Shown here: piece by piece, positions 1 to 24,400 of the stretch
How positions within the stretch are numbered: the first letter of the stretch is position 1
Layout of the letters: the number at the start of each line of letters is the position of its first letter
DNA from: Pseudovirgaria hyperparasitica
Taxonomy: Eukaryota
Length of the DNA: 64,000 nt
NCBI GenBank assembly: GCA_010093815.1
Contig: ML996581.1
Reading direction: 5' to 3' (one strand)
Made by a program: the position numbers and the translations under genes
The notes under the pieces: generated by a model
What the model was told of the DNA's origin: nothing
Seen by the model: only the letters and a program-made list of their open reading frames with translations
Database searches by the model: none

Positions 1-95
<95 letters not shown>
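1..95. repeat. (ATT)n microsatellite, truncated by the window edge
   Basis: Perfect ATT repeat, about 31 units, from base 1. Confidence 0.98.
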
Positions 96-96
<1 letters not shown>

Positions 97-385
97 GATA
101 TACTCTATAGCTATATACTTAAGAAGATATAAAGACTTAATAAGATATAGTTATAAAGAGAAGGGAGTTTTCTCTCTTAGGTTTCTTCTTATATAGTAGC
201 TTAGACTAGAGAAGATATATATCTATAGAGTACTACTCTATCTAGTTATATAATAATAATAATATTATTATACTTATAAAGACTATATTAGTATATAAGT
301 ACTTATTTACATTTCTATATATTCTCGTAGACTAGTAATCTATTAAGTACATTTAATAGACTAAACTATACCTTTTATACTACAG
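96..385. repeat. AT-rich, RIP-like degenerate repeat
   Basis: Very TpA-rich and CpA/TpG-poor; abrupt switch to normal composition near 385. Confidence 0.75.
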
Positions 386-4970: not shown

Positions 4971-5016
4971 GTGGATGTACACGGCTCATGAAATTGGAAT
5001 CGGTACCTCAATAGAA

Positions 5017-5989
5017 CTATCCAACCCGTTTCTTTTGCGGCGAAATATCTTGCATCTCTTTCTCTAAGGTTTCGATAATACAGTCCATTGATTCAATCTC
5101 GCCACGCCAGCATTTCTGCATTAAAACACTTAGTGGTAAATTGTTAGTCTCGGGAAATCTCCCGCGTGCGTAGAGTTGTCCGACAATTTGACCAGCTCCT
5201 TCCATATACATGTACTCCGAATACGGCGGCTTACCCACAACTATCTCGTAGATTATACAGCCAAACGCAAATATGTCTGTAGCGCGACTGGTTTGGGGCT
5301 GAGCCGGTTTATAACTAAACCATTCATAGCAAGAACCGGCTGAGTCACCATTAAGGCTACAACCTTCAAAATCAATTAACTTGACGCCCTCACTGGTTAA
5401 TATCAAATTATTACATCCCACATCGCAATGGACAATTCCGCAATCGTGAACATGTCTATAACCGGCCGCGGCGCGAATCAGCCACTCAAGCTTCGTGCTC
5501 AGCGATATATTACTGCCGGATTGGCATAATTCTCTGAGGGTAGTACCTCGTTCAAGAATGATACCGTCTTGCCATGGCTGAATGAGCTTTGCAATGGTCG
5601 GATGTGGAGCGAGAAGACCATATGCTTGACATTCGATTTGCTCAGACTCACGCAAGTGAAACTCTTTGTAGACGCGGGCTTCATCAACGCTGTATACGAC
5701 ACTGGCCTTTCCAGCAGCTAGGTATCGTAGCATATTTAGGTTCAGGCTGATCTCCTTCAGTTCATTAGGATACTGTTCGCTGGAGGATTGTTCTTCGGAG
5801 GGGTGTTCGTGGGAGGGGTGTTCATTGGTTTCGTCGGGCTCGCAGTGATTTGAGACAGTCTTGAATCTCTCAGAATCCTGCCCAAGGTCCTTCCAGCTGC
5901 GCTTTCGTGTGAAGCAGCAAAGTAGAATGCAAATAATGGACGTGGCTCGGTCAAGTCGAGAAGCTGTGCAACTGATGTACCTTAGCATG
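5017..5989 (-). CDS. Atypical protein kinase-like protein (intronless; start uncertain)
   Basis: GKASVVY Gly-loop remnant, VYK, catalytic loop HCDVGCNN, KLIDFEG, DIFAFGCIIYEIVVGKPPY, LMQKCW. Confidence 0.85.
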
Positions 5990-6938: not shown

Positions 6939-9220
6939 ATTATCCCCTTTCTTTTAGGAAGCTACCCCTAGTAATCTAGATTATTATCTATCTCTATATC
7001 TATATTCTAAGTTCTATAAGACCTTAATTATTCTCTATACTTTATCTTAAATATATATAAATACTAGCTAATCTAAGATTTATATAAGTATTTTTCTAAT
7101 AAACTAGATTTTATCTATTCTAAATTCTTATATAGATAGAATTATCTAATTAGACCTAGTATATTATATAATATAATTAGATAAGTCTAGATACTATCTA
7201 TATTAAAATCTTTTCTTAGAAATATTCCTTTTCTTAAAAAACTTTATAACTTATTATAGAGTTTTTTAGATTATTAGATATATTATCTAATTCTTATAGA
7301 TATAGATTTATATAGATTTACTATAATTTACTATAATTTATATAGCTTACTAACTTTTATAATATACATAGCTAATAATAATAATAATCTATAAGAATCT
7401 ATATAAATTAGTAATAATTATAATATAGTTTTCTAAAACCTTAATACTTAGAAGTAATTAGTATAGAAATAGATACCTTTAAATAATCCTTATCTTATAT
7501 ATATTACTAATATATTAAAAGCTATTAATCTACTCTAATCTAGGCTAGGCTCTAATAATCTAGCTATATATTATTATAGTTATTACTTTCTATTATATAC
7601 TACTTATAGTAGTACTAATTCTATAACTTATAGTATTTATATAACTAAGAAGTATTATTATTTATAGGTATTTAAATAAGTTTAAAAAACTTTATATAGA
7701 TTTACCTATATTAGTATAGATTACTACTAGACCTCTAGTAACCTCTACTAATAAGAAGTATAGTACTACTAATTATAATACCTTAGAGAAGGCTTTCTAT
7801 AAGTTATATATCTATAGTAAGAAGTATATCTAGAAGTATAATTCTAATATAATCTATAAAGTTTTATTAGAATCTACTATAGCTATTATTACTATAATTA
7901 CTAGATAATATTATTTTTCTTAAATTATTATAGATTCTTACTAATATATATTAATCTCTATAATAATACTAAAATCTCTACTACTTTAGACTTCTTTCTA
8001 TATACTAGTAATATTAAAATTCCTAGAAAAGATTCTAATAAAAAGACTAAGATTTATTTCTTATATATATCTAAGAGCTATAAATTTAGAGAAGATAGCT
8101 CTAATCTAGAAGTTTCTATACTAAAGATATATAGTTCTATACTAATTATTAAATCTTTTTACTAATTTATATAATTCTTAGTATATCTATACTAGTCCAT
8201 CTCTCTCTATCCTAGTTTCTACTACTCTATAGATTTCTATAGAGGAATTTATAGCTATAAAACGCGCTATATAGAGTTTATAGCATTAGAATAAAAGACT
8301 AGAGACCTATATTATAAAGCTCTATACTATACTAAATAAAAATTAGTAGAAGAAATTAGATATAATTATTATAGTAATTAGTTCTTCTACTTCTACTCTA
8401 ACTTAATTAGTTTAGATCTATACTAATTAGTACTAATATATTTCTTTTATCTAGTATTTTTAGTTTTTAGTTTTAATTTTAAAGTAATCTTACTTTTTCT
8501 AGATAGATTAGTATAAGTTTATATAGATTTATATAGATCTTTATATTTTCTTTTAGTTTTCTTAATTTTATCTTTCTTTAATAATAACTTCTTTAATCTC
8601 TTTAGTAATCTATACTAATCTATACTAATTAGTACTAATTTTCTATATCTATTTCTCTTAGTAAATTATTTTTCTAAATCTCTTTTTTAGTTAAATTCTT
8701 TAAAGTTCTAAGTTTAAACTCTCTAAGGGAGTTCTAAGTTTAAACTTTCTAAGGAAGTTCCTTAATTCCTTAGAATATTTTAAAGATCTATATCTCTTTT
8801 ATCTTCTTTCTTTTAGATAGCCGTTCTTAGTACTAAACTATACTAAAAAATATTAAATTATTATACTTTAGTATAATTCTCTATAATTCCGCGGCTTCCT
8901 TTACTAATTACTACTTATATACTAGTATTACTACTTTACTAATATTTATTATAGATTTCTAAGTATCTTTATTAGAATTATATTCTTTCTAATAAATTTT
9001 ATATAGCTATATACTATCTTTAGTATATTATTAGCTAAGTATCTACTTAACTTTATAGATATCCGTACCTTCTTATATAAGTATTTTATATAGTATCTAT
9101 TTAGAATAATCTAGTAATAATAAGATATAAAATAGCTTAAGAAGCGTAATATAGAATATATTATATATCTTTAATATAGAAGGGAGTTTTAACTTATACG
9201 CCTAGTTATTAATTATATAA

Positions 9221-12200
9221 TAATAATAATAATAATATTATATAACTAGGTAGAGTAGTACTCTACAGGCCTATGCCTCCTCTAGTCTAAGCCACTATAT
9301 AAGAAGAAACCCCATAGGGAAAAACTTCCTTATGTCTATAACTACATCTCGTTAAACCTCTATTTCGTCTTAAGTATATAGCTATAGGGTACGCCTATTA
9401 GCCTATAGCCTATATTACCGTTATTTTGCCCTTAGGTAGCACGTGTAGGTACGGAGGTTATTAGTTAAGGGCTACCCTTAACTAATAATTAGGGTTCTCC
9501 CGGGGTTCTTCTAGTATATATCGGGTTATTACCGGCGTATACCGGGTCTCTTCTAGTATATATTTCCGGGTCTACTAGTACTAGAGGAGTAGTAGATATA
9601 TAAGTATCTATTAGGAGACGTTCTTAGGGTACTTATTAAGCTATTATACGATATCTAAAGTCTTCGTAACGTAGATAAGCTATTACCGTTATATATAGAG
9701 GTTAGGGTATATAGCTAGATAGTAGCATATTATACCTCTCCGGCCGTACGCCTTATACTATAGAGACACATTAGGAACACCTCTCTTATAGAGATAGTAT
9801 AGAAGTCCCATGGCGCCCGTTCGGGCTTAGATAAGTATAGATACTTAGGCTTTCGTTAGCCCTTTATATATCTATTTACTCAGTTCCTTCTATAGCCCTT
9901 AAATCTACTCTAGGTACCTATCCTACTAGGAGGTCTAGTAGGCACGGAGTGCCTCTTTCTACTTATCTTAAGTCCACGACCGTATATTTTTTATAAGTTC
10001 TTAAAGGCTCTACTAGTCTAGGAGAGCGTCTAGGTTATCTCGGACTTCTTATACTACTTAGCTAGAGTCGGCTTCTATTAAGCACCTATACCGTATTCGA
10101 TTCCGGCCTATATATAGGAGTACGCGGTAATATATGCTAATTTATACACGTAGCGCGGCGAAAGTATATTCTACGTTTTCTATACGTTCCTATACTTATT
10201 ATTTAGTAAAGTATACTACCCTCTATATCTAGTAGAAGTTATATATACTTATAACGTCTGTCTCGCGTCGTAGTAGTACCGTGTTAGTAGCTTTATATAC
10301 GCCTAATATAAGACGGAGTATACGGTTCTATATAGATTCGAGCTTTATTCGCCTAGTCTATATAAGGGCCGTATACTAGTACTCGTGTCCGTACGTGAAG
10401 GCGGGTCGTACTATAGATATATATAGCTAGCGTGCCTTATCCCGGGCGGTTCCCTACGTGGAGACTATAATCTATTATATGGCGGCTTCTATCTAGAGGG
10501 CCCTAGAGACGGCGTATGCCACTTATGGTCCCTATTTAAGCTTACTATCTAGTATAACTCCGAGCGCGCGCATGCTTTATACTAGTAGTTCATTAAATAC
10601 GTTGATTCGGGGGCGTTATTCGCCTTCCCTAGTTACCTATTTCCCTTAACGATTAATAAAGTATATAAGCTAGTATTTCTCTAGGGCGAACTTTGCTCTA
10701 TGGCGTTTTACCTACTAGAGGCACCTCTCGTGGTTCTATTCTAGTCGTCTATACGTTCGGTTGGTATTATTATTAATGGCTAGGAGGTATATATTATCGG
10801 CGTATCCGACTACCTCTATATACTTTATTCCTTAAAGAAGGTCTACTATAAAGAAGAGGAATAGGATTAGAGAGATAGTACTCCCTTATAGGATGCCGTA
10901 TACCGTCTCTTTATATTCGCTCTAGTACCTAGGGATATGTATCTAAGTTATTCTTCCTATAAGGAATAACTATATAAAGCGTGTAATCTATTCTAGTATT
11001 CGTCTTATCCGGAGGTTATAAATAAGTCTTATATAGTTTACCTTATTAAACGCTCCGGCCATATTAAGGGAGAGGAGCGATACTACCCGTCTCTATTTCT
11101 ATACGGCCTGGACGACTTTAATAATATATTAGATAGCTATTATTAGAGAGCTATCTACCTTTACCTTCTGGTTCGGAGGGAGGAGATTATATTTCTATAC
11201 CGCGGTACTTATCTTCTTTACTATTATAGCCTCTAGTATCTTATCTAGGTAGAAGAGAAGGGCGATTAGTCTCTATCCCTTTAGGGAGTTAGGGCTCTTT
11301 CCTAGTTTCGGAAGTATAATAGTATAGGCGACTCGGAAGCTCTAGGGGTGGTACCCCTACGTGACGTATACTTAGAATATATAAGTAATAAGCGGTAGGG
11401 TCGCTTTTATAGTGCTTTTTAGACATTAATTTAGAATTCCATCTGGTCTAGGTGCTTTATCATTTAGAAGTATCTTAATAATATTAAGTATATTCTCCTC
11501 CGTAACTTCTTCGGGGATATCTACTATATATAGATATTCGGCGCCGTAAATATCTAATAGGTCTACTAGTTCCGGGAGAGGGAACATGGCCTCCCGTAGG
11601 GCCTTAGTTTTCTTAAGGCTCGTGGAGTATATTCTCCCCTAATATATTAGGGGAGGTATAAGTAGCGGGGGTGTCGGAGTATCTACGCCCTTAGCCTATT
11701 TCGCTATGCGCCATAGCCCTATTACATATTATATCTATTAACTAGTAATTATACGCTACTATTTACGTCTTTCGTTATAGAGGACTTTATTACGTTATTA
11801 TATCGCTTCCTTCTATTCTTTCTACGACTCGGGTATTCTCGTATAGTATACGTGTATATATAGCCTTCGGGCGTCTTATCTACTTTCCTATACTTAAGGA
11901 ATCCCCTTTACTTCCGGGGGCCGGTATATTTGGTATAGTACGTGTTTATTTCTCGTATTCTAATATATTTATAGGAGTATCTATACGGCCTGGTCTATAG
12001 CTAGATCGTTAGATATATCGACTATAGAGGGATCTAGAATCGCCGATTCCAGGTCCTTTAGGTACTTTTCCTAGTCGGTGTCCTTCTATATCTATCGTCC
12101 CCGTTATTTATTCGGGGTATATACGTTTATTATAGTTTCTATATATTTATAGTCGGAATCCGTCTATACCTAGCCTAGGCGGTAGTATTAGATCTAGTAA

Positions 12201-14501
12201 CTAATATACTCCGTAGCGAAGGTAAGGTTAAGCGTAGACCCGTCTTTATCCTATTTATATTTTTTCTATATAACTTATCCCATAGGTGTAAGTAGGTATA
12301 GAAAGTCGTGGTAGCGGGTACGTAGTTCCCTTACTCTAAGTTCTTCCCTAACTACGGCTAGGCCTCCCTACTATTAGTAGTAGAGGTTAAAGTCTTCTAG
12401 GAGGATGTGTTACCCTAGTTCCGTGGTACCCTCGAGTATCTTATCTAGTATAAGTATATATTATTAGTTATATATATTATATATATATAGGGGGCCTATA
12501 TCTATTTATAGGTGTAGTATTATCCTAAGGTTATCGCGCTTAGTATACGACCATAATAAGAGTAGTATTAACCTATAAATGTAGAAGAGGACTTATCTTT
12601 CTAGTCCTAGAGAGTGTATAGTATGGTATCCGGGGTGTATGGTTGGTTTACTCGTCTAGTAGTGTTTATAGGGTTCCTAGATAGCGAGTATTATAGCCCT
12701 AGTCTCTTCGAGGAGCGTCGCCTAGTTCTCTCTTTTATATTATATATTTACCTATATAATTCGGAGTATATTCTAGTCCCTTATTAGATACTAGGGAGTA
12801 TATATACCTATATACTTATTCCTTAGAGGCGCGACTGTCCTCGCGCGGTAGCGGCTTTAACTATACCTTTTAGTTGTCCTATCGTCTTTAGGATAGTCTA
12901 CTATCCCGCCTAACTACCTTCTAGAGGGGAGGTTAGGGGTATTATAAAGGAAGGGCTCGTGGTAGGTGTTATATTCTATAACTATCTCGTGTCTCTCGCT
13001 TTTATCATGCGAATGTATTCTATGACCTATTTACGTTTTATATACGTTAACGACCACGACGGGTATTTCCTATTATAGTTTAAATACTATACTATATCCC
13101 TGTTTCTTAGTCCGTCTCCTCGCGGTTTATAAGGGCACTTCTAGATAGCGTGGTCCCCACGGTACTATCCGCACTTAGTCTTCTATAAGCACCTTTATAT
13201 AGTATATCTATACCCTTAATAGTTGAAGCACTATATTATTACCTATGCTCTATCCTATAGCTCGGCTATAAGGAGCTCTCCTTCTATTAGGAATCCCTTC
13301 TATATAATGCGTTATATAAGGGCGGGGTCTTAGAGCTCTATAATTATAGTAGAGTGTTTTTTTGCCGTCGTCTTAATCGCCTATAGGTTCTTCTACTACG
13401 CTTTTATAATCTTAATCCCTAGGTATTTTTACGTGTTGGATTATTCTATACACGTAATATCCTCCGCTCCGATAGCCTATCCCTACACGGGTACTACGTG
13501 TACTATAATTAGGTATATAGCTACCCTAATAGACGCGCCGGGAAAGATACTACCTATCACGTTCGGATCTCGCGAGATGTTTTACTACGTAGTATTTATT
13601 ATAGTAGTAAGTACTACCCCACCTAGCGTAACTTTAGTAGCCACGACGCTCGACTACATTCCTTTCTATTCGTTAATCTTATTTATAATTTCCTTTAGGG
13701 ATGCCTATTAGACCTACGCTAGCGTGTCCTTATCCTAGATTACGACACGTATACTATATGCTCTATCTATGGTTCTAGTAGTCCTTAGTACGGTGGCTCC
13801 GGGTATTATTATAATCTAAGCCCACGTGTTAGGGCGCTTACCTTAGAATAGCTCTTTCTAGATTCTCCGTAGGCTGGCTTCTATTTAGTTGAGTCTACTA
13901 CTAGGTTTCTCTCGTGGCGACTTCCTTTCTTTCTCCGTGATTTCTCTTAGGTTCCGGATAAGGTCCCGGAATACATGAAGGAGGGTCTTCTTTCCCTCCT
14001 CGGCGTCTCTCTCTATATATATTACCTAGTATTTAATTTTATCTAGGAGGGTCTCCCCTCTCAGGGTCCCCTCGGTCTAGGTTATCTATAGCGCTTTACA
14101 CCCTTAGTTAGTTCCTATATTTTAGATAGGTGTCTAGCTATCCATATTAATGTCGCTATATGGCCGTTTCTACCGTACTAGTGGGGGTATATCCGGTATA
14201 TGCCGGGGTATTACGATACCTAAGGCCGCTATAGTTATTAGTTAAGGGTAGCCCTTAACTAATAAAAGGGGGTCGGCGTGTCGGCGTTTATTAGATATAG
14301 TCTATACTCGTGTTATCGAAGAGTCTTCGAGTATATATATATAGTATCTCTATACGTCGGTATTATCGTGTATTATACACTATACGTACGCACATATGTC
14401 GGAGGTTATTATACTTAGTATACTCTATTATTTAATGTATATAAATCGCTGTTTTACCCCGAATTAACTAGTTTAGTCCGTTAGAGTGTAAGAAGTTTTT
14501 T
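9221..14501 (-). mobile_element. RIP-mutated, apparently full-length Tad1-like LINE nested in element A
   Basis: 16-bp TSD GTTATTAATTATATAA at 9205-9220 and 14502-14517; (ATT)n 3' tail from 9221. ORF1 CCHC knuckles (~13150-13235). ORF2 APE motifs LAIQEP (~12675-12690), LLGDFNLHH (~12380-12405), SDH (~12150); RT motifs KAP.PDGI (~11435-11460), D...AFD (~11045-11070), GI..GS.ISPILF (~10850-10900), YAD(D) (~10790-10810); no RNase H seen. Confidence 0.93.
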
Positions 14502-16281
14502 GTTATTAATTATATAAGTAATCTTATATAGATCTATTATTATATAGTTAAGCTTCTTCTTTAGTCTAATACTATAAATATTCTTACTATTTAGTAAAAC
14601 TTTATCTCTAATATTAAAGATTATAGGTTTTCTACTCTTATTATAGTATAATTTACTATAATCTATAGTATCTTATAGTAACTTTATAATACTTCTTTAT
14701 ATTTAGAATAGTTCTATAATAATCTCTATTACTTTAATATTAGATTATTCTACTTTAAACTATATTTCTAAGAACTACGCCTTATAGTTCTAACTAAAGT
14801 TTACTTTAAATAGACTTATATAGATTAATATATATTAGCTATTATTATATATAAATTGTATAATATAGACTAACCTTATCTAATTATTATACTTATAGTT
14901 ATAATATATATATAAATATACCTTAACTATCTAATTCTACTACTCTATCTATCTATCTATTTATAGATAGAATATAATACTAAGTTTCTACTTAATTCCT
15001 AGTATATAGTAGAAATCCTTCTAAAATTTAGATATTATCTATAGATCTCTATCTAAAACTATATTATTTAGTATACTATAGAGCTAAACTATATTATAGA
15101 GTAGTATATCTATAAGATCTAATACTTAGATTATCTTTCTTATAGAGATATAGTATAATATCTTTATAAATCTATCTAGAACTATAAGTAAACTATTATA
15201 AATATATCTAAAATACTTACTTAGGGGTAGATCTATAATAAAATCTATTAATAATTTCTTCTATATCTTCTTTAGTATAGATAATAGTCTTAATTTACTA
15301 TATAGTAAGTATCTATATACTTTTATATACTAGTAAATATTATATATTTCTATATAGTTCTTTATATATTTATAAAGATCTAGCTAGTTATATATTCTTT
15401 AAATTAAATTAACTATTCTTATAATACTAAAGTATTCTACTAATATATAATTATACTATTCCCTTAAAATATTAATCTATAAGCTATCTTCTAGTATATA
15501 GAGTTAGTCTTAGAAATATATTATATCTAATTATTATTTTTATCTTAATAACTATAGCGGATCTATAGCGCTTTCTTTTATACTTATAACTTTCTTTACT
15601 AATATATTAGAATTCTAGATAGATTTAATTAAGTCTTTAAGGGTTTTCTTAGTTTCTTAGATATTTATTTAGATTACTTAATACCTACTCTAATTTCTAT
15701 AGAGAATTACTAAAAGTATTCTAGCTTCTAGTATTCTATTAGATAACTAGTCTTATAGTATCTATAGTATAGTATAGTCTAAATTATACTAACTATCTAT
15801 ATTATTCTATAATAATTTCTTATAATCTTTACGCTATAATAGAGGATTAGCTTTATTCTCTCTTCTAGCTGTATATACGATTTTAAAGTTAAATATTAAT
15901 ATCTACTTAGCCTAGTATACTTATTAGTAATTAAGAACTTTAGTTAATATAAAGTAATATAGATTTATATAATCTAATAATAATTTAATCTAATATATAG
16001 AATCTTCTAAATAATATTACTATTACTTAAAACTCTTAATAATTATAAGTAGTTTCTAGTTATATATATTATAATATATCTCTATATCTACTATTTTATA
16101 GAAAAAGAAGATAACTAGATACTATTATATCTTATCTTTTATATCTTTATATAGTTAACTACTAATTCTAGTAATTATAAATTCTAATATATTAGTTTCA
16201 ACCTAAATATACTTCTTAGAATTAAAATACCTAAGAATTAGTATAGTTATAAAGTAATTCTTTAATAATTAGAATATATCT

Positions 16282-16861
16282 NNNNNNNNNNNNNNNNNNN
16301 NNNNNNNNNNNNNNNNNNNNNNNNNNNNNNNNNNNNNNNNNNNNNNNNNNNNNNNNNNNNNNNNNNNNNNNNNNNNNNNNNNNNNNNNNNNNNNNNNNNN
16401 NNNNNNNNNNNNNNNNNNNNNNNNNNNNNNNNNNNNNNNNNNNNNNNNNNNNNNNNNNNNNNNNNNNNNNNNNNNNNNNNNNNNNNNNNNNNNNNNNNNN
16501 NNNNNNNNNNNNNNNNNNNNNNNNNNNNNNNNNNNNNNNNNNNNNNNNNNNNNNNNNNNNNNNNNNNNNNNNNNNNNNNNNNNNNNNNNNNNNNNNNNNN
16601 NNNNNNNNNNNNNNNNNNNNNNNNNNNNNNNNNNNNNNNNNNNNNNNNNNNNNNNNNNNNNNNNNNNNNNNNNNNNNNNNNNNNNNNNNNNNNNNNNNNN
16701 NNNNNNNNNNNNNNNNNNNNNNNNNNNNNNNNNNNNNNNNNNNNNNNNNNNNNNNNNNNNNNNNNNNNNNNNNNNNNNNNNNNNNNNNNNNNNNNNNNNN
16801 NNNNNNNNNNNNNNNNNNNNNNNNNNNNNNNNNNNNNNNNNNNNNNNNNNNNNNNNNNNNN
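16282..16861. other. Assembly gap (580 N) inside the RT region of element A
   Basis: Run of N. Confidence 1.
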
Positions 16862-21400: not shown

Positions 21401-24400
21401 TTATACGATAGTTATATACGGTTTTAAAGATTTTAATCGCTAGTTTCTACGCGTGGACGTTAATATCTATTATTTAGTTAAACTAGACCGTATAAGGTTT
21501 AAAACCTATCCTTAGACTATATTCTAGATTTATCTAGAAGGGCGTAATATCTATTATACTATAACGACTATTATTATATACGAATTCTACTATACTTAGT
21601 AGAGAGGCCTAGTTATCTTATTCGAAATTATAGAATATACGAAGATAGACCTTAAGTGTTTAGTTCTATTACTCTATCTAACTATCTATTTATAGATAGA
21701 ATACTATTAATATATTCCTATTTATACCGGCTATTTTATAGAATAACGTCTAGAATTTAGACGTGAATATACTCCCTTAGTCTATAATAATCCTTTTTAG
21801 TATACTATAGACCTTAATAATCTTATTCTAGAATACTTATACTAGTTCTTTTAATATAATTATCTTCTATATAGAGATATACCTAGATATCTTTATAAGT
21901 CTATCTATAATAATAAGAATTAAATTATAACTTATTCTAAGTATCTTACTTAGAGGTAAGTTAACTATAAAATCTATAATAATATCTTTCTATATAAAGA
22001 GAGGGACTAGTAGAGACTATAAATTTCTATGTAGCTTATACCTAGATACCTTTATTCTTTAATAAATTAGATAAGTAGCTATCTATTCTTTAATATACTT
22101 AGGTATATCGTTCTAAAAGTAGTACTAATAAATCGAGCTTAGGGTATATATATACCCGAAATATTCTACTAGGTTAGTATTATAGTATCGGCTAACTATA
22201 GTAAATTATATATTATCTATTAGTATATAGTACTTTCTATTATAGTAGAGTAAGCCGTCTATAAAGGTCTACTTATAGTCTACTTTAGTCCGTAATAACC
22301 TATCTTACTATATTTTATATAACTTTAAAACTATTAGGTCTATCTTTTATAGATTTATAATTAACTAGGTAAGATCTACTTAATATATATACTAGGTACT
22401 ATCGCCCTTTCTAATAGTACTAATAAATAGCTCGCTAGAGACTTCGGTACTATATCTTTAGTTACTAGCTTTAGTCTTATAAATTTAATTACTAGTATTA
22501 GTATTAGTATCTTACTAATTATTAGATAACTTATTATCTAACCTTATCCTTAAGAGTTAGATCTATAGCTACTCTAGAATTCTATAGCTACTATAATTCT
22601 AGGCGCCTTCTTTATAGTTAGGTCTTCTTAATATTCTATTAGCTAGGTTTATACTTCTAGATTGATAGTAGATTATAAAGTAGAAATTTATAAGCTACTT
22701 AGCCTATTAAACCTATTAATGATTTAAAACTATTATACTTATAAACTCCTTTAAGTTATAGTAATTAGTTAGTAACTTAACGTTATATATAGTACCTTTA
22801 AGATAATATTACTACTACTTAAACGACTCTACTATTACTAGTAGCTCTTAGTTATAAATAGTATATCTAGTCTTAATATTAGCTATCTTACGTAAGAAGA
22901 ACGTAACTAGATACTATTAGACCTTTTTAGACTCTATTAGTCTAGGCTAGAAGAGTATATCTAAGATTATAAATTCTAATATATTAGTTTTAACGTAAAT
23001 AGATTTAGTTAGATTAAAGTATACTAGTAATAGAGTAGTTATAAATATCTCTTTAATTTTCTTAAAGGATATTCTTTTAATCTCTATTAATTTAATAGAT
23101 TACGACTTAATATTATACTATTTCTATCTACTATAGACTATAATAGATAAATTAGTAGTAGTAGTATATATATTAAGTAGTATAGCTAGATAGAAGAAGT
23201 ATTTAATAAATTTTTAATAGTAGTTAGCGAAGCTAATAAAGATATATATATCTTAGATAGATTTTAGTTTAGGCTATTCTATAATAGTAGTAACCCTATC
23301 TCTCTCTATAATTATATCTTAGTTAGTAATAATAAAGCTAAGAAAGTTAATATAGTTCTAATAGAACTTATATTTGGATAGCTTAATATATAGCTTATAC
23401 TTTTCTAGTCTATCTAAGACTATATATATATACTAGATATACTCCTTCTTATTATCTAAGAAGATAAGAATATTATCTAGGTATACGATATATATCATGT
23501 CGAGTAGATCTACTAGCGCGTTATTAATATATACTTAGAAGGTACCTAGTATATTAGTTAGTCTAAAAGAGACTATAGTATACTTAAAGTATCTATAATA
23601 GATTCTAAAAGCCGTTTTCTATTTCTTACCCTCCTTAATATAAAAGTAATAGTAGATATTATATAGATTAAGCTTAGTAAAGATCTTTATATGTTCTAGT
23701 CTATTAATAGACTTAGAGATAAGAGGTAGTAGATAATAATTCTTTTATATAATATTATTTAGACTATAGTAGTTAATATATAGATAGAGGCTTCTATTCT
23801 TCTTCTTTATAAAGAGAATTAGAGCTCTAGCTAGAGATATACTAGATCTAATCTATTCTCGCGTAAGGTTCTTTTTAATATATTCTTAAAGGACTTATAA
23901 TTTAGGTTCTAAAAGAGAGTAGATAGGTCTATATAGAGGTTACTAGCTATCTTTAAGATTAATAGTAAGGTTAGTAGATTAGTATTAAGGTAGTTTAGAG
24001 GAATTAATTACTAATATAATATATTAGTATATTTTATACTAATATAGTAGGTTTTCATCTACTTTAATACTAAGCTTACTATTTTAGATAAGTAAGAGTA
24101 TATAGATAGTAGAAATTACCTTCTTATAATCTTTATAGAATTATTTATTATTAATAAGCTATACTAGTTTCTATTAAGGTAGGTTTATACGCTAGCTAGC
24201 TATTTTCTTAAGGAAGTCTAGTTTTAGATTATATTTCTTAAGCTATAGTATACCTAGAATTATATTAAAGGGACTATCTACTATAATAAAGGTTAAATAG
24301 TAGGGTTTCTATTTCCCTCCGCTATCCTAGATACTATATTTAATAGTATAGATACTATATAACTTAATAGAACTATCGATACTATAGAATATAGTATCTA

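Follow-up and report, generated by a model that had tools for sequence, protein, structure and literature searches.

A full-length APE-type LINE of 5281 bp, degraded by RIP, occupies positions 9221..14501 on the minus strand of the window, that is, of the whole 64-kb stretch of DNA that was analysed, and was delimited by its target-site duplication (TSD), the RVT_1 match, the alignment to protein P0001 and contig breaks. The two 16-bp copies of the TSD (GTTATTAATTATATAA, 9205..9220 and 14502..14517) are the only occurrences of this 16-mer within the window, and it was matched in 0 of 100 shuffles. Besides, in a contig of run X1, 10 letters separate 9194 from 14502, which reads like an empty LINE site, while contigs of runs X3 and X4 lose their likeness to the window directly behind 14501, so that the boundaries of the LINE are independently supported. 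The element was inserted into an AT-rich, non-rDNA repeat and ends in a simple-repeat tail, (TTA)n/(ATT)n on the sense strand (9221..9245, minus strand; period 3 at 9217-9237). This tail is common to a second, 5'-truncated copy at 94..382 on the plus strand, which comprises the last ~170 nt of the 3' end plus the tail (72.7% identity over 293 nt) and ends before reaching the position of the hairpin described below. The identification as a LINE made in the original prediction was borne out by the RVT_1 match on the minus strand, the collinearity of ORF2 with a 1061-aa protein, the TSD, the repeat tail and the truncated copy. The RIP index is 0.25 in the LINE and 1.20 in the genic part of the window; with RIP stops all along both ORFs, this copy, the one complete copy that was read, is dead.

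The region encoding the endonuclease and the reverse transcriptase, ORF2, extends over 9482..12720 on the minus strand (both ends approximate), carries many RIP stops and was placed by alignment with P0001, an intact LINE protein of 1061 aa with reverse transcriptase and endonuclease families, to which it is 30% identical over 1076 aa in a single frame (E 6e-131). The reverse transcriptase domain (10661..11284, minus strand; PF00078 RVT_1, E 5.5e-10) was matched in one of the three minus-strand frames, at residues 1039-1246 of the frame starting at 14398; the motif YADN lies at 10793-10804, and EDFNLYY, aligned to GDFNLHH of P0001, at 12377-12397. Pfam returned neither an endonuclease nor an RNase H match in the RIP-degraded window copy, the endonuclease type being taken from the best relatives, P0001-P0003, which have PF14529 and/or PF03372. 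The RNase H family PF00075 is present in the relatives P0008 and P0011, with none precomputed for P0001-P0003. No transposase or recombinase was seen in the LINE, in which Pfam found the reverse transcriptase family only. ORF1 covers approximately 12900..14145 on the minus strand, has no Pfam match and retains degenerate CCHC-knuckle remains (C..C..H..C) at 13123-13230; the first surviving ATG of its frame lies at 14145-14143, a start that is uncertain because RIP can convert ATG to ATA. An ORF1 with CCHC knuckles and an RNase H domain after the reverse transcriptase are features of the Tad1 clade, and the nearest named relative of the present element is a hypothetical protein of Podosphaera aphanis. 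The C-terminal tail of ORF2 contains a 21-nt (7-codon) tandem repeat of 2.9 copies (9503..9562, minus strand; period 21), the copy number of which differs among paralogs, as seen from a contig loose end behind 9511.

The same 31-mer occurs in inverted orientation at two sites on the minus strand, both recognized by sequence and fold. The 3' hairpin (9458..9488, TTATTAGTTAAGGG-CTA-CCCTTAACTAATAA; RNA 5014-5044, loop UAG) lies 237 nt from the 3' end of the LINE, and the 5' hairpin (14235..14265, TTATTAGTTAAGGG-TAG-CCCTTAACTAATAA; RNA 237-267, loop CUA) belongs to the 5' UTR; it precedes the ORF1 ATG by ~90 nt and lies 236 nt inside the 5' end at which it had earlier been placed. As originally reported, the 31-mers are exact reverse complements (31/31), each with a perfect 14-bp stem and a 3-nt loop, and with three flanking bases included the repeat reaches 34 nt at 97% (pair I2). 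The exact 14-nt arm was found only at the four arm positions in the 64-kb window, and allowing two mismatches or fewer gave six matches against 1.29 expected, a number reached in 0 of 100 shuffles. A census of perfect hairpins in the window (stems of at least 12 bp, loops of 3-8 nt) returned three, namely the 31-mer pair and an AT-only one at 24020-24046. The 3' hairpin had been assigned to the 3' UTR, which is inaccurate: the ORF2 frame is open for 29 codons beyond the last P0001-homologous residue, and its first stop, TAG at 9484-9482 (minus strand), lies inside the hairpin, with TAA TAA at 9463-9458. RIP is able to create stops, not to remove them, and the position of this first ORF2 stop counts for a cis-acting role of the hairpin. 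Both 31-mers are devoid of CpA and TpG, so that their intactness after RIP is uninformative on selection.

A second dyad, the copies of which lie on the minus strand at 9532..9545 (CCGGCGTATACCGG on the plus strand) and 14193..14206 (CCGGTATATGCCGG on the plus strand), is present as originally described, with one transition between the copies when inverted (three when direct), but is only weakly significant. A transition-tolerant pattern, derived from these same data, matches only these two places in the window (0.02 expected), while as a local alignment of the two 250-nt inner flanks the dyad was matched by 31 of 300 shuffles and is not significant. The order of hairpin, spacer and second dyad is mirrored at both ends, and the spacers (43 vs 28 nt) have no similarity, with 551/2000 and 1179/2000 shuffles scoring as well. 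The inner and outer flanks showed no inverted similarity beyond that of shuffles (31/300, 98/300, 90/300 and 34/300 scoring as well), including the outer 236 nt of the two ends (98/300 and 90/300), and direct flank similarity was marginal and of low complexity (0/300, 32/300, 7/300 and 34/300). Repeat and flank comparisons of both ends revealed no terminal repeats of the LINE besides the 31-mer. Judging from these alignments, the likeness of the two sites is limited to the hairpin and possibly the second dyad, and similarity confined to the hairpin fits a conserved module rather than a decaying segmental duplication.

Folding of the single window copy under a nearest-neighbour model gave -15.8 kcal/mol for each local hairpin (z -5.0 and -5.6), a stability equalled in 0 of 200 shuffles, and each hairpin was kept in the minimum free energy (MFE) structures of the 400-nt and 420-nt ends. 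The duplex of the two 31-mers (31 bp) was calculated at -47.3 kcal/mol, compared with 2 x -15.8 when both fold locally, and cofolding of the two 450-nt ends gave -240.9 against -229.9 separately, with the second dyads paired too. In the MFE structure of the full 5281-nt RNA, 237-267 is paired with 5014-5044, although this predicted cyclisation is weak evidence because the model barely penalises the closure of a 4.7-kb loop. Since the 31-mers are exact reverse complements, two alternatives are available to the RNA, a pair of local hairpins or a single 31-bp duplex between the 5' and 3' sites; the switch between them suggested in the original prediction is supported in thermodynamic terms only (-15.8 each vs -47.3, the full-length MFE using the long-range pairing).

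Other copies were compared by the alignment extent of contigs from four runs (X1-X4). Both 31-mer positions are covered by alignments of such contigs, from further copies in the window's strain as well as from a strain with far less RIP. At the 5' site, 14264/14265 is the endpoint of contigs in X1, X3 and X4, and 14236 the starting point of contigs in X3 and X4; in X2, the alignment of one contig reaches 14264 and leaves 7 further letters unaligned. Breaks at the edges of the 5' 31-mer are as in a 31-mer graph when one word has two contexts, and we take k to be 31 for these contigs. One contig of the less RIPped strain (X4 record 26, 9425-9641; depth 41.8, similar to the 40 of the main contig) runs unbroken through the 3' site, from which it follows that the main 3' copy there apparently has no 30-mer in common with the 5' copy. 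The exact complementarity may therefore be absent in some lineages, and in the window copy it could partly reflect RIP convergence, with C>T and G>A changes erasing differences, or be confined to some lineages. Little-mutated copies of the LINE apparently still exist in that strain.

The original prediction had called for a search of related LINEs for the same arrangement, and it was absent from the distant relatives tested (31 loci for the inverted pair and 27 for hairpins). The upstream 2.6 kb and the downstream 1 kb were compared in 31 metagenomic LINE loci with usable flanks: 25 of them had a longest exact inverted match of 10-14 nt, four had none as long as 10 nt, and two had one of 22 nt that was not palindromic. 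A perfect hairpin of at least 10 bp was present in eight of 27 distant LINE loci and a matching pair in none of them. A degenerate 31-mer pattern had no matches in metagenome, viral and prokaryote collections, which contain little fungal DNA, and a keyword search of the literature on non-LTR elements, which was not exhaustive, found no such inverted hairpin pair.

Some components of the arrangement have counterparts in known systems. In stringent-type LINEs, which are without a poly(A) tail, the reverse transcriptase depends on locating a particular structure at the 3' end. Their ORF2 proteins bind the cognate 3' stem-loop (PMC4176376). Like zebrafish ZfL2 and eel UnaL2 as portrayed in such accounts (PMC4176376, PMC5135761), the window LINE has a short-repeat tail instead of poly(A) and, upstream of it, a stable stem-loop near the 3' end, at most a few hundred nt away, which is here a candidate recognition site for the reverse transcriptase. 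The stem-loop of ZfL2 and UnaL2 is described there as single and restricted to the 3' UTR, whereas here the 5' UTR has the same stem as well, its loop being complementary, and the 3' hairpin overlaps the ORF2 stop; besides, ZfL2 and UnaL2 belong to the L2 clade and the present element is putatively a fungal Tad/I-like one. Ty1 RNA is described as requiring a 5'-3' CYC5:CYC3 interaction (PMC3681743), a long-range pairing that supports reverse transcription; a 5'-3' pairing is predicted for the window LINE too. Ty1 differs in being an LTR element, tRNA-primed inside particles, with short cyclisation sequences that are not palindromic hairpins. R2, a non-LTR element, likewise has structured segments at both RNA ends, and in the description drawn on here its 5' and 3' motifs bind protein and coordinate first- and second-strand steps; its two segments are unrelated in sequence, whereas here the same 31-mer is inverted (PMC6895275). 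An R2-like system was rejected, the element having an APE-type endonuclease and an AT-rich, non-rDNA target as opposed to the restriction-like endonuclease and 28S rDNA target of R2. Inverted repeats near both ends are found in DIRS-like retroelements, TIR DNA transposons and foldback elements. A TIR- or DIRS-like element was rejected, considering the outer 236 nt without inverted similarity, the lack of any recombinase or transposase seen, the 16-bp TSD, the simple-repeat tail, the 5'-truncated copy and the coding capacity for APE and reverse transcriptase. Perfect non-terminal repeats of the TART kind were rejected as well: those of TART are long and direct, and here the repeat is 31-34 nt, inverted and palindromic, with marginal direct flank similarity. 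The likeness lies in TART being described as a non-LTR element whose 5' and 3' regions contain identical subterminal repeats (PMC5537684).

Our preferred reading, held tentatively and at somewhat less than even confidence, is that the 31-mers are family-specific cis-acting RNA elements, a 3' recognition stem-loop and its 5' partner. The 3' hairpin would be the recognition stem-loop of a stringent-type LINE and, lying on the ORF2 stop, would re-form beside the newly released protein, favouring cis action. The 5' copy might be bound by a second protein molecule via the same stem or might pair with the 3' copy, in which case the ends would be held together, translation closed off, and full-length copying and the joining of the 5' end helped. 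Against this, if one protein served both RNA hairpins the loops would be expected to be identical, yet they are complementary; long-range pairing alone would need no palindrome in the paired segments; and Rfam returned no match. A bistable switch, in which local hairpins would serve translation and protein loading and the 31-bp cyclisation duplex would serve reverse transcription, appears improbable; by it, the 3' end bound by the reverse transcriptase would be handed to the 5' end, favouring full-length, cis-preferential copies.

Among the rival explanations, a neutral relic is possible but rather doubtful: an inverted copy of the ORF2-end hairpin would have been created in the 5' UTR of an ancestor, for instance when the reverse transcriptase switched templates at a palindrome or in a twin-priming-like rearrangement, and passed on without function to all descendants. 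Palindromes favour strand switching, LINE 5' UTRs are often remodelled, the mirrored order of hairpin, spacer and dyad fits one inverted duplication of ~90 nt, and the lack of the arrangement in distant relatives points to a young, lineage-specific origin. A relic should decay evenly, however, and the spacers are dissimilar while the 31-mer is retained at 31/31, with break points of similarity that coincide exactly with the palindrome. It is unlikely that the palindromes instead function as double-stranded DNA bound by a dimeric protein of the host or the element, the 5' site acting in an internal promoter and the 3' site serving an antisense promoter, a terminator or chromatin. Dimer sites typically show perfect dyad symmetry about an asymmetric 3-bp centre, and their orientation is irrelevant; the 5' copy, moreover, occupies the part of a LINE that contains the promoter, the 5' UTR. 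In Dictyostelium TRE5-A a host factor binds the 3' C-module, which also counts for this explanation, and the second dyad contains CGG-N6-CCG, which we take to resemble fungal zinc-cluster factor sites. Nonetheless, a 14-bp half-site is very long for a transcription factor, the 3' site would not need to coincide with the ORF2 stop, and no protein candidate or motif match was obtained.

Similarity that ends exactly at the palindrome edges would also fit a very small palindromic repeat of independent origin, dispersed through the genome as a mini-MITE remnant, footprint or recombination hot spot, which landed twice in the LINE lineage, as would the second context of the 5' 31-mer in the less RIPped strain, which is apparently not the main 3' site. 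This origin is hardly probable, considering that the 64-kb window, ~22 kb of which consist of other RIPped repeats, has no further occurrence of the arm, that the positions are mirrored at 236 and 237 nt from the ends together with a mirrored second dyad, that 25-31 bp is far below known MITE sizes, and that the degenerate pattern was not matched in the collections searched, with their little fungal DNA. Although an inverted 31-mer is an ambiguous node to an assembler with k = 31, an assembly artefact or chance is highly implausible: independent contigs from four runs cover both sites, the inner segment has its orientation fixed by ORF2, which runs to the 3' tail side, by the TSD and by the truncated copy, and chance is excluded by the arm-shuffle test and the hairpin census.

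Even if the 31-mer pair were a neutral relic, it would still be a diagnostic marker of this LINE lineage, and k = 31 assemblies will break at it. If true, the bistable switch would make this the first non-LTR retrotransposon for which a cyclisation element is described. A LINE with a 31-nt module at both ends, one copy of it on the ORF2 stop, would make two questions testable with simple compensatory mutants, namely how the proteins of LINEs without poly(A) find their own RNA (cis-preference) and how the 5' end reaches the integration site for full-length copies.

Within the interval 9215-14410, the GC content is 0.39, the TpA/ApT ratio is 1.69 and the (CpA+TpG)/(ApC+GpT) ratio is 0.25, against 1.20 in the genic part of the window, and every reading frame is riddled with stops, so that heavy RIP-type mutation is evident. 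The window is fungal-like, with a GC-balanced genic part at 28-64 kb (GC about 0.5) and AT-rich blocks at 6-28 kb. The boundary between the RIP-saturated, AT-rich repeats (6000-28000) and the genic region (28000-64000) is sharp and isochore-like, the (CpA+TpG)/(ApC+GpT) index of the repeat blocks being 0.03-0.07, and an assembly gap of 580 N (16282-16861) falls in the most AT-rich block, where the surrounding GC content is 0.07-0.19.

The identification of the element carrying the hairpins as a LINE in the original prediction was borne out by a reverse transcriptase (RT) match, collinear ORF2 homology, endonuclease families, a target-site duplication (TSD) and a tail. With stops read as X, one of the three minus-strand frames matched Pfam RVT_1 (E 5.5e-10), and this frame is collinear over 1076 residues, with no frame shift, with P0001, the closest protein relative of ORF2 (intact, 1061 aa; 30% identity, E 6e-131). 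The three best relatives, P0001-P0003, carry RT and exo/endonuclease-phosphatase families. Also on the minus strand are the endonuclease motif EDFNLYY (12377-12397), which aligns with GDFNLHH, the RT motif YADN (10793-10804) and, in a second, upstream frame, degenerate remains of a CCHC knuckle (13123-13230) and the first surviving ATG of ORF1 (14145-14143). The TSD is the 16-mer GTTATTAATTATATAA, whose only two occurrences in the window are at 9205-9220 and 14502-14517. Among the contigs of four coded sequencing runs (X1-X4), one from X1 links 9194 to 14502 through 10 letters resembling 9195-9204 and reads as an empty site, in agreement with the TSD, while the X3 and X4 contigs diverge from the window directly behind 14501, which is an independent agreement. 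The TSD and the contig boundaries thus define an element of 5281 bp (9221-14501), which ends in a (TTA)n-type tail. A 5'-truncated copy of the last ~170 nt of the LINE plus tail lies on the plus strand at about 94-382 (72.7% identity); it stops short of the hairpin position and is therefore uninformative on the hairpin. Directly upstream of this copy is a long (ATT)n microsatellite (1-93), and either one copy may have inserted at the tail of another or such repeats may be preferred targets.

The two 31-mers are, as had been claimed, exact reverse complements over 31 nt in the window sequence, the 3' hairpin reading TTATTAGTTAAGGG-CTA-CCCTTAACTAATAA (9458-9488) and the 5' hairpin TTATTAGTTAAGGG-TAG-CCCTTAACTAATAA (14235-14265), and a repeat finder extended the inverted repeat to 34 nt at 97% (pair I2). 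Because each 31-mer is palindromic, the relative orientation of the two is set only by the 3-nt loop, three flanking bases and a second, shorter dyad. The exact 14-nt arm occurs in the window only at the four arm positions; allowing up to two mismatches, six matches were found where 1.29 were expected, a number reached by none of 100 shuffles. Perfect hairpins with a stem of at least 12 bp and a loop of 3-8 nt number three in the 64-kb window, namely both 31-mers and one at 24020-24046, located in a RIPped block and made up of A and T but for one G/C pair. Both hairpins of the LINE have stops in every one of the six frames, a property shared by 141 of the 5251 31-mers of the RIPped element and hence not counted as evidence. 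The second dyad is present on the inner side of each hairpin where it had been described (9532-9545 and 14193-14206), its two copies differing by one transition in inverted and three in direct orientation. A transition-tolerant pattern derived from these data matches just these two sites in the window, and as a local alignment of the 250-nt inner flanks the dyad is unremarkable (31 of 300 shuffles score equally).

Beyond these motifs, no inverted similarity was found in the outer 236 nt (98/300 and 90/300 shuffles scored equally), in the spacers of 43 and 28 nt between hairpin and second dyad (551/2000 and 1179/2000) or in the inner flanks beyond the dyad (31/300, 63/500 and 34/300). The high-coordinate flanks are weakly similar in direct orientation (0/300 and 7/300 shuffles scored equally), through low-complexity, TATA-rich sequence, and this was not relied on. 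An extended terminal inverted repeat was rejected, since flanks and spacers did no better than shuffles. Likewise, a truncated inverted LINE copy adjoining the 5' end was rejected as the source of the 5' hairpin, because the similarity extends no further than 34 nt and because this hairpin falls between the two copies of the TSD. The hairpin pair is thus modular, its similarity stopping where the palindrome stops.

In the sense RNA, the hairpins occupy positions 237-267 and 5014-5044, leaving 236 nt to the 5' end and 237 nt to the 3' end, respectively; these near-equal distances may be coincidental, as tail length varies among copies. The 5' hairpin belongs to the 5' UTR and precedes the ORF1 ATG by about 90 nt; this start is uncertain, since ATG can become ATA through RIP. 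The assignment of the other hairpin to the 3' UTR has to be amended: the site is near the 3' end of the element, but it is not simply 3' UTR, since the first stop in the ORF2 frame falls inside it. Homology of ORF2 to P0001 reaches about nt 9569, where P0001 continues for 15 residues and the frame in the window stays open for 29 codons, up to a TAG (9484-9482) within the hairpin, with TAA TAA at the hairpin end. Since RIP creates but cannot remove stops, and X4 record 26 is gapless against the window over 9425-9641, the ancestral ORF2 ended in or just after the hairpin. Ahead of the 3' hairpin, a 21-nt (7-codon) tandem repeat (9503-9562) forms the C-terminal tail of ORF2; it encloses the 3' second dyad and varies in copy number among paralogs, as seen from a loose contig end behind 9511.

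X1 and X2 derive from one sample, which holds the window copy, and X3 and X4 from another sample with the same species label. At 80% likeness, X1 and X2 gave 22341 and 8177 contig pieces, which points to a LINE family that is highly repeated and diversified in the strain of the window. Where the window has A, X3 and X4 show G at 484-488 places, and where it has T, they show C at 222-224; the opposite changes are few (C>T at 10-12 and G>A at 4-6 places), so that X3 and X4 hold a far less RIPped version of the LINE. Read from the window copy, RIP over 9221-14501 is strand-asymmetric, with A replacing G of the less RIPped version at 484-488 positions and T replacing C at 222-224. The main X3/X4 contig (4052/4383 nt, depth 93/40) covers 9623-9753 and 10033-13931/14264; in it, the 279-bp stretch encoding the ORF2 C-terminus (9754-10032) is replaced by 7 letters, and a minor contig of the same strain (depth 28/14) retains 9717-9970, so that a deletion derivative seems more abundant there than the full form. 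The less RIPped copies also have a 12-nt insertion behind 11587 relative to the window copy. Among the differing letters listed for the contigs of the four runs, none falls within either 31-mer.

Contigs of X1, X3 and X4 break at the 5' hairpin, k = 31 being taken as the word length of the assemblies. In the less RIPped strain, X3 record 22 stops at 14265 and X4 record 27 at 14264; among other RIPped paralogs, X1 record 8 ends at 14264, and X2 record 16 aligns to 14264, followed by 7 unaligned letters; X3 record 23 and X4 record 30 begin at 14236. In a graph of 31-letter words, such breaks are the signature of a 31-mer present in at least two contexts, with flanks differing on both sides, and the unclipped alignment to the contig ends suggests that the outer stem letters match those of the window. 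We rejected a single-site hairpin flip-flop as the cause: by the logic of the de Bruijn graph, the bubble it creates would interrupt contigs at the loop, whereas the breaks seen lie at the outer edges of the 31-mer. X4 record 26 (depth 41.8) runs unbroken over 9425-9641, straight through the 3' site, and in the main variant of that strain the 3' copy therefore apparently shares no 30-mer with the 5' copy. Either the main lineage of that strain has one or more differences, or the match between the two sites of the window copy was made exact in part by RIP convergence, or the 5' word has its second context at another place.

A hairpin pattern tolerant to de-RIP had no match in the metagenome, viral and prokaryote contig collections. 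A protein-guided scan retained 80 of 481 related metagenomic LINE loci, with ORF2 27-33% identical to the window copy; the retained loci exclude the contigs encoding the two best protein matches, and the query alignment was headed by P0002, not by the closer P0001, an order through which the nearest locus may have been missed. The hairpin arm was absent from these 80 loci, which gave seven single-arm matches with one mismatch, none of them a dyad. ORF2 was matched nearly in full at 34 loci, three of which were set aside because their flanks were too short; in the other 31, the 2.6 kb ahead of ORF2 were compared with the 1 kb behind it for exact inverted matches. At their longest, these matches measured 10-14 nt in 25 loci (shuffles reach 11-15 nt) and less than 10 nt in four, where the sequence downstream of ORF2 was in each case under 320 nt; two loci (L049 and L055) had a match of 22 nt that was non-palindromic. 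Any perfect hairpin of at least 10 bp was seen in 8 of 27 loci, and a matching pair in none. The same arrangement was thus not found in the distant metagenomic relatives, 31 for inverted matches and 27 for hairpins. Additionally, no Rfam family matched 9100-14620 at E 1 or better, and a protein search with the C-terminal 138 residues of ORF2, aimed at short partial proteins of intact copies, left none of 74 candidates at E 0.001 or better.

The predicted folding energy of each 31-mer is -15.8 kcal/mol (z -5.0 and -5.6; 0/200 shuffles as stable), and both hairpins are kept when the 5' end (400 nt) and the 3' end (420 nt) are folded to their minimum free energy (MFE) structures. The duplex between the two 31-mers is predicted at -47.3 kcal/mol, and when the 5281-nt RNA is folded in full, its MFE structure (-1414.1 kcal/mol) pairs 237-267 with 5014-5044 base for base. 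Cofolding of both 450-nt ends gave -240.9 kcal/mol, against -107.5 plus -122.4 apart, with the second dyads paired (296-300/302-309 with 4966-4970/4957-4964) and an 11-bp pairing at the extreme 5' end (RNA 2-12 with 5172-5182). This 5' end, AAAAACUUCUU (window 14490-14500), is complementary over 11 nt to 9320-9330, which lies some 100 nt short of the 3' end. The energy model scarcely penalises the closing of a 4.7-kb loop and the folded sequence is a mutated copy; what the predictions show is a possible cyclisation, not an actual one.

The hairpin pair is real, lies inside one element and occupies functionally meaningful places, the 5' UTR and the ORF2 stop. We rank first, tentatively, a cis-acting RNA role, in which the 3' hairpin would serve a stringent-type LINE as its recognition stem-loop, and the 5' copy would either bind a second protein molecule or take part in 5'-3' pairing. 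Published accounts describe ORF2 proteins of stringent-type LINEs that bind the cognate 3' stem-loop (PMC4176376), protein-binding RNA motifs at both ends of R2 (PMC6895275) and the requirement of Ty1 for a CYC5:CYC3 interaction (PMC3681743). Against a cis-acting role stand the contig of the other strain, unbroken through the 3' site, the complementary loops, which misfit one protein with two identical RNA sites, and the fact that pairing alone needs no palindromy. Survival under RIP is uninformative on selection, since the 31-mers are now without RIP targets. A neutral inverted duplication or template switch in an ancestor of the lineage, to be weighed against similarity confined to the modular pair, comes second and appears doubtful. 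DNA-level dimer-binding sites, palindromic as the 31-mers are, seem unlikely, and an independent mini-palindrome, with its exact arm seen in the window at no site outside the LINE, is less likely still. Artefact or chance we regard as highly improbable.

Non-exhaustive keyword searches of the literature, with subscription journals mostly outside their reach, returned no non-LTR element with paired inverted subterminal hairpins. The perfect non-terminal repeats of TART are in direct orientation. These repeats (PMC5537684), the 5' and 3' motifs of R2 and the 3' stem-loops of stringent-type LINEs are the nearest precedents. The finding of the pair comes from a single degraded copy plus indirect contig evidence. 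Judging by the sequences of the distant relatives compared (27-33% identity), the hairpin arrangement appears to be lineage-specific and not general to these fungal LINEs.
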